Positions 26,265-29,933 of a DNA stretch of 29,933 nt are shown piece by piece. The DNA comes from Candidatus Thorarchaeota archaeon (lineage in GTDB: Archaea; Asgardarchaeota; Thorarchaeia; Thorarchaeales; Thorarchaeaceae). The stretch covers positions 1,979,459 to 2,009,391 of the forward strand of contig CP070761.1 of NCBI GenBank assembly GCA_020348985.1, in the 5' to 3' direction. The notes below the pieces were generated by a model. The model did no database searches, was not told where the DNA came from, and saw only the letters and a list, made by a program, of their open reading frames with translations. Within the stretch, counting starts at the first letter, position 1; each line of letters begins with the position of its first letter. Position numbers and translations under genes: made by a program.

Positions 26265-27176
26265 TCAGACTCCTCCTATTAGCTCCTTCAATCTTGCGCT
26301 TCTTAGTGAATCATAGATTCTCTCAGTGAAGAAGAGCATCGATCTCACTGAAACGACTCCACGGAATGAATGCACTCTTCTCATTACTTCCTCAATGTCA
26401 CGTATGTGTTCGACAACGAATACGCAGAACATTGTTGGATGAATTGCAGAAACTGATGGATACCAGAACTCAAGCGGGTAACTCTTCCTTAGCCTATCAA
26501 TGATCTCTTCATAGCCCGTGATATTCTCATTCCAGGAAACTTTCAGAGAAAACACTACACTTTGCCCTGTATTGATATTCCTCCAAATCGTGAATCTGAT
26601 GACTTCCCCATCAACTAGGCGATTGATGATGCCTCGCACTCTTTTCGAAGTGAGCCCCGTTTGTCTAGCTATTTCTGATATTGGACTTCTTGGATTCTTC
26701 ACAAGCATTTTGAGAACCTTGAGATCCAAATTTGTTAGGTCCTTTTTCTTTCCCCTATTGATCAAAATCGGATGGATCTCAACGTCCGCGACCCCCGGCT
26801 GCACACGTAGCAAGTTTCCAAGCTCCCCTATTCCGTCGGTTCCCACACAGTCACCATCGACCATAATGTCTCCCGAAGCGAGTGGCAAAACCACACTAAT
26901 CATAGGATTCTCTCCCAAGCCATCGAATGTCTTGTCGTCGAAAAGCGTTCCATCTGTTTGTGCAATTGCCACTACATAATCGGCATCTATCATTGCGTAG
27001 CTAAGAACAACATCAAACCTTTCGATTACGCCTTCTTCAATCAAGTTGTCAATTCGTTTCTTGATAGCATTGGCACTCACTCCGTATCTGTTGGACAGGG
27101 TTTGATAAGATAGTCTGCAATTCTCCTCCAAATCCGTGAGAATGCCTTTGTCAATCAAGTCCAAAAGAGACACCAC
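26265..27176 (-). CDS. Tandem (duplicated) Lrp/AsnC-type winged-helix transcriptional regulator
   Basis: Two HTH modules: LDLIDKGILTDLEENCRLSY...KKRIDNLIEEGVI and LTNLDLKVLKMLVKNPRSPISEIA...RLVDGEVI, each followed by a RAM-like domain. Confidence 0.88.
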   Translation of the reverse strand: MVSLLDLIDKGILTDLEENCRLSYQTLSNRYGVSANAIKKRIDNLIEEGVIERFDVVLSYAMIDADYVVAIAQTDGTLFDDKTFDGLGENPMISVVLPLASGDIMVDGDCVGTDGIGELGNLLRVQPGVADVEIHPILINRGKKKDLTNLDLKVLKMLVKNPRSPISEIARQTGLTSKRVRGIINRLVDGEVIRFTIWRNINTGQSVVFSLKVSWNENITGYEEIIDRLRKSYPLEFWYPSVSAIHPTMFCVFVVEHIRDIEEVMRRVHSFRGVVSVRSMLFFTERIYDSLRSARLKELIGGV

Positions 27177-27253
27177 GCAGCTTTAGCAAGACTGAGAAGG
27201 CCTATTGAAATTACCTGACCAAGCCGAAGACGAATCCTCCGCTCGATTTGCTG

Positions 27254-27508
27254 TTACTCTTCTATCTGTCCGGGTTCAACAGCAAATGTGATTATGACAA
27301 AGAGATTGTCCGGGCTGTTTGGAAGAACGGTCATCTCATGCAGATCAATTGATTCTTCTTTCTTGACTCTGTCTATGCATCTCTTCAATTGACTGAAACT
27401 AACGCCTTGGAGGGAGTACGTGAATTGATAGCCCTCCGTCCCGTATCCAGAGTTGATCTTTTGTCCAAGGCTGCCGATTTCTTCTTCAACTATTTTGACT
27501 AGGCCCAT
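27254..27508 (-). CDS. Small hypothetical protein (84 aa)
   Basis: Fills the gap between co-oriented genes, ATG start with purine-rich upstream GAGATGA, globular composition. Confidence 0.65.
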   Translation of the reverse strand: MGLVKIVEEEIGSLGQKINSGYGTEGYQFTYSLQGVSFSQLKRCIDRVKKEESIDLHEMTVLPNSPDNLFVIITFAVEPGQIEE

Positions 27509-27591
27509 CTGTTATCATCTCACAATGTCAGATTGCGCAGGAGATACAGAATTCGAGATATTAGGGTTGCTGGTGCCTCTAAAGCGTGATT

Positions 27592-28635
27592 TTACGGCAG
27601 AAGAAGTGTTGGATATCTATCTACGCTCTCTGCCGCTCCCGGAACTAGGTAACTCCCTGACCCGTTATAGTCACTCCAAGAATTGCCTATCTCTTTGCCA
27701 TCGTCCCAATAGTTCTCTGAACCATTGTCTAGAGCATTTGTCTCATTGTTCCATCCGATGCTGTTCAACCAGCTACGAATGACGTAGCACTTCTCTCCAA
27801 TGCAGATTCCTACTCTCTCGTTATGAACTACTTTGTTTTGCTGTATCATCCAGTTTGTGCATTGGTAGTCAATTTGGATTCCTTGAACGTTGTGCCAGAG
27901 TGCGCTATGCGAGATTGAGCAGTTGTTGCTGAACTGGGCTAAGACTCCCCATTCATAGTTTGTCAGGTTCAGAGAGCATGTGACCGTGTCATTTGAACCA
28001 ACGATGAATGCCCCAACGGCTCCGCGGGGACATGAGACCTTGAAATCATCATAGTACCAATCACCAGACCCACCTGCCATCACACAATCGTAAAACCCAA
28101 CGTGGGCGGAGAGTGTCGCATTCACTCCTGTGTTCACCTCCAGGAATGTGCAGCTCGATACATTCGAATGCTCAACGAAAAAGAACGTTACTCCCTCATC
28201 GATCTGATTGAAGAAGCATTCGTATACGAACACATTGCTTGCACTCTCGACATAGACTCCCTTTGAGTACAGCTGTTTGTCACCATGGAAGAAGCAGTCT
28301 TTGATTACGATATTGAGACTTACGTTCCTTATGAAAACACACCAACGATCCGCAATAATATAGTAGTCCTCGATTACGTACGGATATTCAAATGTACCAT
28401 TCCCTCGCCATTCTTCACTAATCGCCTTCTCATGTAATTCAGAATCGTTAGTGATTCGAATTGGTGCATGGTCTTCTTGCCAAATCTCCGGGAGAGTCAC
28501 GGGTGTTGTTGTCAGGGATGGCCCATTCTCTGGCTGAGGCATGAACACACTCGAAATGCCAAGTGTAGCAGCCACAACAACCACAATCACAACAACTGCG
28601 ATTCTTTGTGAGCTCCCGCCAGAATCGTACCCCAT
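27592..28635 (-). CDS. N-terminally anchored right-handed parallel beta-helix (NosD/pectate-lyase-like) protein
   Basis: TM IAVVVIVVVVAATLGISSVF; HAPIRI, GNGTFEYPYVIE, repeated G-V/I-x-x...S-N-x-x-I/V turns, NYWDDG..GNSWSDY, DRYP terminus; SD GGAGG. Confidence 0.85.
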   Translation of the reverse strand: MGYDSGGSSQRIAVVVIVVVVAATLGISSVFMPQPENGPSLTTTPVTLPEIWQEDHAPIRITNDSELHEKAISEEWRGNGTFEYPYVIEDYYIIADRWCVFIRNVSLNIVIKDCFFHGDKQLYSKGVYVESASNVFVYECFFNQIDEGVTFFFVEHSNVSSCTFLEVNTGVNATLSAHVGFYDCVMAGGSGDWYYDDFKVSCPRGAVGAFIVGSNDTVTCSLNLTNYEWGVLAQFSNNCSISHSALWHNVQGIQIDYQCTNWMIQQNKVVHNERVGICIGEKCYVIRSWLNSIGWNNETNALDNGSENYWDDGKEIGNSWSDYNGSGSYLVPGAAESVDRYPTLLLP

Positions 28636-28659
28636 AGAAGCCCTCCATCATAGTTCTTT

Positions 28660-28837
28660 CCATTGCCACGCATATTACGGTTTCCCTTGACGACCTCTTT
28701 GTGCAGTAGCTGACACATTTCAAGGAATCCTCACGGATTCCTTGACTCAATGACTCTGCTCCTGAAGAGTAAACGGCTTCGTACAAGCCTTGGCAGTGAC
28801 CGCCAACTCACATCCTTTACTGAGAACGTGGCAATGG
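28660..28837 (-). ncRNA. Candidate structured non-coding RNA or palindromic element of unknown family
   Basis: Perfect 11-bp terminal inverted repeat (28660-28670 / 28827-28837); perfect 11-bp hairpin with GUGA loop (28720-28745); further helices at 28700-28717, 28775-28789, 28790-28806, 28807-28824. Pairing is seen directly; RNA function is inferred. Confidence 0.45.
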
Positions 28838-28848
28838 TCGACCTCTGA

Positions 28849-29933
28849 TCAGTGAGTTTCAGTAATCTCAATCGTTTCAGATTCAGCACTAGAATGTGAG
28901 TCTTTAGTTCTTCCAAAGAACCAGTAGAATAGAAGGACGCCAACAATATAGAACAGACTTGCAAAGGCGAAGGGAGCTCTGACCAAACCCGCAGCTAAGA
29001 GCATTCCTCCTATGTTTGCACCAACTCCACGAGCCAAAGCATCTCCTGCATTGATCAATCCCATTGCTGTAGACTGTTCCTCTCTCTTCAGCCCTTCCAT
29101 AAAGAAGACCTCCATGACAGGTAGCTGAACATTCATGAAGACATTCCTGCTTACGTACGCAATGGCAGCAATTCCAATGTTAGGAGACCAAGATAGCATC
29201 AGAAGGAATGGTATTGAAAGAGACTGTGATCCAATGATGGTCCATGTCTTTCCAATGCGTTCTGTCAGAATCGGATACAGAAAATTCGCACTGGCTAAAA
29301 CGACTGTATTGATTCCAAAAATCAATCCGATGGTTGAAGAGTCAACATTGAAGGCCTTGTTGAAGAAGATGTTCATAAACATGATGAAGAAGCCAGCACC
29401 AAGACCCGTGATTGTCCAATGTGATGCATACTTTCCGATGAACTCTGAATTCTCAAGGTTTCTGATGTTGAAAGTCAGTTCCTCTGAAGTTGGAGTGTCT
29501 TTTGTCATTGGGAGGATTGCTAGCAGACTTGCAAACAAAGGGATTAGTCCAGTATAGAGTGTGAACTGGTACGAAGACATCAGTGTGTCCGCAAATCCAA
29601 AGTGAAGCCACAGCTCAGGAAGATATCCTCCAATGATGAAGCCAAAGAAGTTTGCAATAATCCAGAATCCAAATCTTACACTAAATAGGTGAACTCGTTC
29701 TTCCTCAGTTGTTACTGAGACAGTATAGGGGGTGAAGGCTACATTTTGAAGTGCCCATCCTATACCGATGATGCCTTGAGCTATCAGAAGCAGTATTGGG
29801 GATGGTGTTGTATAGAGAAGAGCTGTAGCTAGGATTACAAGAGAGGATCCACCAAGGAGTGTATTCTTCCGAGATTTCCGATTAGTATAAACTCCTGCAA
29901 GAATCGCGATTGTAGCAGTTACAAAGAGAGAGA
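28849..29933 (-). CDS. MFS transporter, 5'-truncated by window edge
   Basis: Hand translation shows the frame stays open above Met 29580 to the edge (AGVYTNRKSRK motif-A-like, TTEEERVHLF); second half has LTERIGK and EEQSTAMG. Confidence 0.9.
   Translation of the reverse strand, partial: SLFVTATIAILAGVYTNRKSRKNTLLGGSSLVILATALLYTTPSPILLLIAQGIIGIGWALQNVAFTPYTVSVTTEEERVHLFSVRFGFWIIANFFGFIIGGYLPELWLHFGFADTLMSSYQFTLYTGLIPLFASLLAILPMTKDTPTSEELTFNIRNLENSEFIGKYASHWTITGLGAGFFIMFMNIFFNKAFNVDSSTIGLIFGINTVVLASANFLYPILTERIGKTWTIIGSQSLSIPFLLMLSWSPNIGIAAIAYVSRNVFMNVQLPVMEVFFMEGLKREEQSTAMGLINAGDALARGVGANIGGMLLAAGLVRAPFAFASLFYIVGVLLFYWFFGRTKDSHSSAESETIEITETH

Follow-up and report, generated by a model that had tools for sequence, protein, structure and literature searches.

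The 213-nt spacer between an MFS transporter gene and a beta-helix protein gene, both on the minus strand of the Thorarchaeote DNA studied here (29,933 nt in all, the window in what follows), holds a 178-nt element, positions 28660-28837, whose whole predicted fold is a genuine outlier in its genome. The explanation that we favour, and to which a probability of about one half can be given, is that it is a young, species-specific structured spacer set on a conserved promoter-like block, that it has no promoter of its own, and that it would be present in RNA only through read-through from the MFS gene. The initial annotation, made from the letters alone, had proposed an undescribed ncRNA, a cis-regulatory leader or a non-autonomous repeat element in a probable Asgard genome; the guess as to the genome was right, the MFS homologs being named Candidatus Thorarchaeota.

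The features of the region are given below by window coordinates, in the order in which they are read on the minus strand. Orthologs of the beta-helix protein were found at 73% identity on a JGI contig (P0002, locus L042) and at 52% in a same-genus genome (G002, locus L031); L055 is the locus of an 88% ortholog of the MFS protein.

28849..29931, minus strand: MFS transporter gene, 3' part, which runs off the window; stop codon 28849-28851 (Pfam MFS_1, E=1.4e-28)
28687..28837, minus strand: lineage-specific part of the spacer (local alignments to the L042, G002 and L055 flanks are at shuffle level)
28827..28837, minus strand: 5' arm of the closing stem, CCATTGCCACG, of lineage-specific sequence (perfect 11-bp inverted repeat, also in the MFE)
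28775..28824, minus strand: three adjoining short hairpins, CTCA/TGAG, TTGGCGG-TCA-CTGCCAA and GGCTT-GTACG-AAGCC (in both MFE and centroid, with mirror hairpins on the plus strand)
28693..28769, minus strand: long arm with interruptions, at the tip of which stands the perfect 11-bp hairpin TCAAGGAATCC-GTGA-GGATTCCTTGA, 28720-28745 (from the fold and a repeat search)
28641..28686, minus strand: conserved block, 36/46 identical to the locus of the 73% ortholog, L042, with BRE-like GGAAACC, TATA-like TAATAT, a spacer and an SD
28672..28677, minus strand: TATA-like box TAATAT, the sole A/T hexamer in the 213-nt spacer
28660..28670, minus strand: closing stem, 3' arm, CGTGGCAATGG, past the TATA-like box and before the putative transcription start (~28648)
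28641..28646, minus strand: SD-like GGAGGG, 5 nt before the ATG and unpaired in the fold
27592..28635, minus strand: beta-helix (NosD/Beta_helix) protein gene, first of a three-gene module (Pfam; 73% and 52% orthologs)
27254..27508, minus strand: gene for an 84-aa protein without a Pfam match, partner of the beta-helix gene and 88% identical to the L042 copy
26265..27176, minus strand: double winged-helix (AsnC/TrmB-like) regulator, third gene of the module (Pfam HTH_24, E=8.6e-21)

Anatomy and stability of the fold

Using RNAfold, the minus strand of 28660-28837 is predicted to form a five-way junction with an MFE of about -73 kcal/mol; over 201 nt (28650-28850, minus strand) the value is -74.5 kcal/mol, and the centroid is almost equal to the MFE. 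Both of the perfect 11-bp stems that had been described for the element are present. The closing stem is an inverted repeat, 28660-28670 / 28827-28837, with 156 nt between its arms, and in the MFE it consists of 11 Watson-Crick pairs and one G-U; the inner hairpin, 28720-28730 / 28735-28745, has a loop of 4 nt, which on the sense strand is a GNRA tetraloop (GUGA). The margins had also been placed correctly, at 11 nt from the MFS stop codon (ORF end 28849) and 24 nt to the ATG at 28635, and the three adjoining helices of 28775-28824 were reproduced by RNAfold on the minus strand. Two further helices that had been proposed, ACTCT/AGAGT and TGTG(T)CAG/CTGCACA, appear in the plus-strand fold but are replaced in the minus-strand MFE by the long arm at 28693-28769. 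The last one, GG-GAAA-CC, is paired in the minus-strand MFE but sits in the BRE/TATA-like block conserved among the orthologs, and there it probably forms no RNA tetraloop hairpin; what had been read as a GNRA hairpin is probably the BRE. Neither the SD nor the ATG of the beta-helix gene takes part in pairing in the minus-strand MFE. A near-copy of the hairpin arm TCAAGGAATCC, reading TCAAGGGAAACC, lies at 28679-28690 and offers a possible alternative pairing. No bulge-helix-bulge (two 3-nt bulges, 4-bp helix) is found at the closing stem, which is an uninterrupted helix of 11-12 bp with no pairing outward from it, and neither of the C/D-box sRNA boxes sought, TGATGA and CTGA, was seen when the minus strand of 28660-28837 was read by eye.

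When compared with dinucleotide shuffles, as the initial annotation had suggested, the minus strand has z = -4.90, with 0 of 200 shuffles as stable. The plus strand, with an MFE of -65.4 kcal/mol -- that of the minus strand lies ~9 kcal/mol below it -- has z = -5.61. Of the 58 pairs in the MFE, 56 are Watson-Crick and 2 are G-U, so that the fold is nearly strand-symmetric and both strands are significant. The argument that the structure works on the minus strand only, which had been drawn from GNRA loops and a G-U pair, is accordingly weak, the plus-strand z being even lower and only 2/58 pairs being G-U. Structured RNAs that have evolved for a long time are usually richer in wobble pairs, and in this respect the element is unlike them.

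That two perfect 11-bp stems are improbable by chance does not hold for the closing stem taken alone, but it does hold for the local hairpin and for the fold as a whole. Inverted repeats of 11 bp spaced 100-250 nt apart number 117 genome-wide as against 73-82 in block shuffles, and ~0.7 of them are expected per 30-kb window; hairpins with an 11-bp stem number 8 genome-wide as against 2-4 in shuffles, only 2 of them being in non-coding DNA. From these repeat counts it can be estimated that ~0.01 cases per genome would be expected in which a long-range stem of 11 bp encloses a hairpin of 11 bp. For a scan of the genome, ORFs of at least 120 aa were masked and 5,762 windows of 180 nt were taken from the 1,114 segments (427 kb) that were left. 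When the non-coding segments of the 3.16-Mb genome, about 1,100 of them, were ranked with window positions optimised for the top candidates, the element came 5th. Among random windows (64 non-coding and 64 coding) the lowest z is -4.3, whereas the element reaches -6 to -7.7 by the same noisy 12-shuffle estimator. The palindrome at 28720-28745 occurs once in the genome, even when up to 3 substitutions are allowed. Perfect hairpins in general (stem of at least 9 bp, loop 3-8) number 101 genome-wide, compared with 59 in a block-shuffled genome, and one third of them fall within the 13.5% of the genome that long ORFs leave unmasked.

Relatives, orthologous loci and the promoter-like block

The element had not been matched to any known class of RNA, and the searches with Rfam and ARAGORN bear this out. 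Rfam 15 at the gathering threshold gave no match in the whole window, and ARAGORN found 0 tRNA or tmRNA genes there; at E <= 10, over 28400-29100, Rfam returned three chance-level matches, the best with 17.9 bits against a threshold of 72 bits, and no riboswitch. The suggestion of a non-autonomous repeat element fared badly. By BLASTN and by a covariance model (built from the single sequence and its own fold, 58 pairs) the element is single-copy in the 3.16-Mb, single-contig genome; its flanks (...GGTCGA / AAAGAA...) contain no direct repeat that could be a target-site duplication; no copy of it was found in ~210 Asgard genomes or in viral, phage and plasmid sets; and its 3' arm lies in sequence that aligns with the promoter region of the L042 ortholog. 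BLASTN against 60 relatives produced short chance matches and no homolog of the element, and the covariance model, run on 40 genomes of the family and 150 of the phylum, matched only the element itself. Nothing was found in IMG/VR with the palindrome or in phage and plasmid collections by BLASTN. Metagenomes scanned for the beta-helix protein, and for the pattern of conserved promoter, SD and start, likewise gave nothing. When the terminal-repeat pattern, with an interior of 140-170 nt, was sought in all GTDB genomes, it was met in six bacterial genomes, which are unrelated, as are the interiors of the pattern in them, and this is about as often as chance would have it. A repeat family and the described RNA classes are thereby ruled out. 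The orphan status of the element is weak evidence when taken alone, since same-genus orthologs are 40-52% identical in protein and non-coding DNA is not expected to align at that distance. Small ORFs hidden in or across the spacer (112, 77, 49 and 43 aa) were also considered and rejected; they have no Pfam match and run out of frame over real genes.

The genes on either side have different histories of neighbourhood. A decayed C-terminus of the MFS protein was considered and rejected, the C-terminus being intact and aligned with those of orthologs at 88, 87 and 76% identity; each of these MFS orthologs has another downstream neighbour. The 5' part of the MFS gene is translated as X, owing to masked bases (N) just past the window end (L001:~2780-2890), and the comparison covers the C-terminus. 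The beta-helix, 84-aa and regulator genes form a conserved module, found at 26265-28635 (minus strand) of the window and at L042:820-2452, where the regulator gene is cut and the N-terminus that it encodes is 75% identical; the 84-aa protein is better conserved with respect to L042 (88%) than is the beta-helix protein (73%). In both L042 and G002 the upstream neighbour of the beta-helix gene is a different gene, divergently oriented. Because the module is kept, the MFS C-terminus is intact and the neighbours differ in the orthologs, the MFS / beta-helix junction is a species-specific synteny breakpoint. The spacer that follows the 88% MFS ortholog (L055:4138-4331, 194 nt) is unrelated in sequence and has z = -2.98, a weak parallel; it contains a perfect 8-bp hairpin, GGGTCACA-TCA-TGTGACCC, and the downstream gene there encodes a GNAT-domain protein. 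Parts of the locus are also contained in sediment metagenomes of nine studies. In three of the sediment studies the contigs match the locus at 99% identity or more, and the element in them is free of substitutions, indels and joints; the flanks carry 5 SNPs in ~920 nt, in view of which 0 in 178 nt is not significant.

An alignment of the three upstream regions, with shuffle scoring, limits the homology with the L042 upstream region to 28641-28686, where the local alignment score is 38 as against 16.2 +/- 2.2 in 300 shuffles. The block has the layout GGAAACC-G-TAATATGC, 22 nt, TGGAGGG, in which GGAAACC is conserved with L042. Its TATA-like box is aligned as TAATAT here, TAATAT in L042 and TTATAT in G002, in each case 36 nt before the start codon; the 3' closing arm is aligned with CTCAGGAATCG of L042, at 6/11 identical positions; and the GGAGGG stands where SD-like motifs have their genome-wide peak, at -13 to -11. 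From this conservation and the usual archaeal layout we infer that 28641-28686 comprises the BRE/TATA promoter and a short leader of the beta-helix gene. Transcription in Archaea usually starts ~25 nt past the TATA box, which would put the start near 28648. TATA-like hexamers before start codons have no sharp positional peak genome-wide, so the promoter assignment rests on three orthologs only. The element has this TATA-like box in its 3' end, so that a beta-helix transcript made from the putative promoter would begin downstream of the element. This, together with the unfolded upstream regions of the orthologs (z +0.48 for the 73% ortholog, L042, and +0.18 for the 52% one, G002), tells against the cis-regulatory leader that had been suggested.

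Origin of the spacer and competing explanations

According to the favoured explanation, the spacer would be a young composite. Its last ~45 nt (28641-28686) would represent the ancestral core-promoter-like region of the beta-helix gene, and its first ~150 nt (28687-28837) species-specific DNA that fills the junction formed when the MFS gene came to lie upstream of the beta-helix / 84-aa / wHTH-regulator module. The simplest account of the perfect, nearly all Watson-Crick stems is that they may be young local inverted duplications of the template-switching type, one stem being apparently an inverse copy of the TATA-to-start spacer and the other resembling sequence beside the BRE-like block. Within the ancestral block there is sequence of which the 5' closing arm is an exact inverse (local P = 0.007). 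For the inner hairpin, the 5' arm, GTCAA-GGAATCCGT, matches GTCAAGGGAAACCGT, beside the BRE-like block, at 13/15 positions (P = 0.06), which is no more than suggestive of a duplication origin. Such an origin would also agree with the roughly 2-fold excess of perfect hairpins in the genome and with their enrichment in non-coding DNA. Template-switch mutation is a documented one-step source of perfect RNA stems (PMC8794818, PMC5453318). The stems so described (PMC8794818, PMC5453318, PMC10710096) are like those of the element in having perfect Watson-Crick arms with almost no G-U, in that one arm is the inverse of nearby older sequence, and in being absent from orthologous loci; they are single hairpins, whereas the element is a 178-nt five-way junction. 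The 3' block, for its part, resembles an archaeal BRE/TATA core promoter in the purine-rich segment directly upstream of an A/T hexamer, in the fixed 36-nt distance in the three orthologs and in the short leader with an SD, and departs from the norm in that its start site is inferred and the genome has no sharp TATA position peak.

No TATA-like box placed to start an RNA at the 5' end of the element is found in the 213-nt spacer; as the spacer thus lacks a promoter of its own, the full 178-nt fold would form in no RNA other than a read-through product of the MFS gene. In such RNA it would be the 3' UTR of the MFS transcript or the intercistronic part of an MFS/beta-helix transcript, and the compact five-way junction would leave the downstream SD and ATG free. 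Plausible roles would be that of a barrier to 3'-to-5' decay or an insulator between cistrons, or there may be none; the strongly structured spacers of the genome have no clear 3'-end preference and do not favour a general role at 3' ends. Bacterial clusters of stem-loops in 3' UTRs and between cistrons, of the REP/BIME type, offer a comparison, in that they too come after a stop codon and between co-oriented genes, contain several stable hairpins, are non-coding and leave the downstream ribosome-binding site free. They exist in hundreds of copies and are bound by known proteins, whereas the element is single-copy, archaeal and species-specific.

A fold this extreme could instead reflect selection for RNA function, and the GUGA loop and the minus-strand MFE lower by ~9 kcal/mol can be held against the young composite spacer on that account. 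A lineage-specific functional small RNA, coming from MFS read-through or an unrecognised promoter and acting in trans or as a protein scaffold, would agree with the exceptional stability and well-defined ensemble (centroid close to MFE), with the GNRA loop that caps an 11-bp stem on the sense strand, with an interior that is identical in contigs of three independent sediment studies when the flanking genes have SNPs, and with the further unannotated multi-arm folds in the same genome. It is nevertheless a doubtful reading: there is no TATA-like box upstream of the 5' end and no homolog in relatives, covariance model included; G-U pairs number only 2, and the plus strand is equally significant; promoter-like sequence, which orthologs without the fold also have, makes up the 3' arm and the GGAAACC 'hairpin'; and zero SNPs in 178 nt is not significant next to 5 in ~920 nt of flanks. 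The location of the element, immediately ahead of the beta-helix SD and ATG, the alternative pairing available between TCAAGGAATCC and its near-copy TCAAGGGAAACC, and 5' UTR lengths that appear variable in this genome might speak for a cis-regulatory 5' leader of the beta-helix module, similar to a riboswitch or thermosensor and transcribed from an upstream promoter or by read-through. Such a leader is improbable, however, as the conserved TATA-like box at the 3' end of the element means that the normal transcript excludes it, the 73% and 52% orthologs do without a structured leader, the SD and ATG are not sequestered in MFE or centroid, and no Rfam riboswitch was found even at E <= 10.

The scar or solo copy of a mobile element, be it a MITE-like one bounded by inverted repeats of 11 bp or one terminus of an integrated element, is suggested by the perfect repeats around ~156 nt and by the location at a synteny breakpoint. 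MITEs are indeed similar to the element in size (100-300 nt), in being non-coding and foldable and in their terminal inverted repeats of ~11 bp. The element differs from them in that there is one copy in the genome, with no target-site duplication (flanks GTCGA / AAAGA) and no relative in ~210 Asgard genomes, IMG/VR or the phage and plasmid collections; the six bacterial genomes that have the same repeats at a spacing of 140-170 nt are unrelated, as are the interiors, which agrees with chance; and the 3' repeat is ancestral promoter sequence, within the ortholog-aligned region, and so was not brought by an insertion. We therefore give a mobile origin little credence. Equally, a DNA operator is unlikely, that is, a 26-bp perfect palindrome, perhaps with a third half-site, serving a dimeric regulator such as the wHTH protein of the module. 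In its favour, the palindrome precedes the TATA-like box by ~58 nt, the half-site near-copy abuts the BRE-like block, a double-wHTH regulator is encoded in the same conserved module, and the fold is almost strand-symmetric; yet the genome has no second such palindrome, none similar is present in the promoter region of the 73% ortholog although the regulator is retained there (75% over the visible N-terminus), and the other four helices and the long-range stem would be left unexplained. If the element were just neutral sequence at the extreme of what chance produces, with neither a particular origin nor a function, this would agree with the chance level of the 11-bp long-range repeat alone and with the selection of the element after the fact, out of a scan of the whole genome. 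Structure prediction on one sequence is in any case no evidence of function (PMC8250186). Chance is still a very improbable explanation given z -4.9 with 0/200 shuffles as stable, rank 5 in the genome, and the ~0.01 cases per genome estimated for such a nesting of two 11-bp stems.

Structured spacers elsewhere in the genome

The spacer contains no oligo-T intrinsic terminator (at least 5 T), its longest T run being 3. This says little, because oligo-T is not enriched after stop codons in the genome as a whole: runs of at least 5 T within 100 nt occur in 7.5% of 761 regions, compared with 6.2% for A runs as a control. The canonical archaeal oligo-T terminator signal thus seems to be rare in this Thorarchaeote. 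Spacers with z < -2.5 make up 3.4% of convergent, 7.5% of tandem and 5.1% of divergent ones, with a small sense-strand bias, and a class of structured spacers acting as 3'-end terminators is not supported by gene orientation.

Folds as strong as that of the element or stronger occur at G000:C1 1674412-1674591, 2957384-2957563, 2334770-2334949, 1340800-1340979, 1641828-1642007 and 1186471-1186650 (loci L057-L062). Each of these other top-ranked folds has its own sequence, and none has a match in Rfam or to a tRNA; for the top three, BLASTN in 20 relatives gave no homolog except that 66 nt of the third are matched in G008. Part of the second most structured spacer recurs in inverted orientation ~300 nt away, 83% identical over 45 nt (G000:C1:2957885-2957930, minus strand, versus 2957530-2957574). 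One possibility, which we regard as a long shot, is that the element is one of a population of multi-arm RNA structures in the larger spacers, forming a class by shape and not by sequence, with an Asgard-specific part in ending, processing or stabilising transcripts. Structures of such a class could take on these tasks given that oligo-T is not enriched after stops.

The element provides a caution, in that a striking single-sequence fold, with two perfect 11-bp stems and z about -5, is here that of a species-specific spacer fused to a promoter-like block, without homologs, copies or strand asymmetry in the searches made. Transcription termination and RNA processing in the Asgard archaea are, to our knowledge, largely unstudied, and if the element is transcribed and defines mRNA ends, it would be relevant to both. 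If the origin proposed here is the true one, the spacer would be a clean natural case of a complex RNA fold built de novo from an inverted promoter-proximal duplication.
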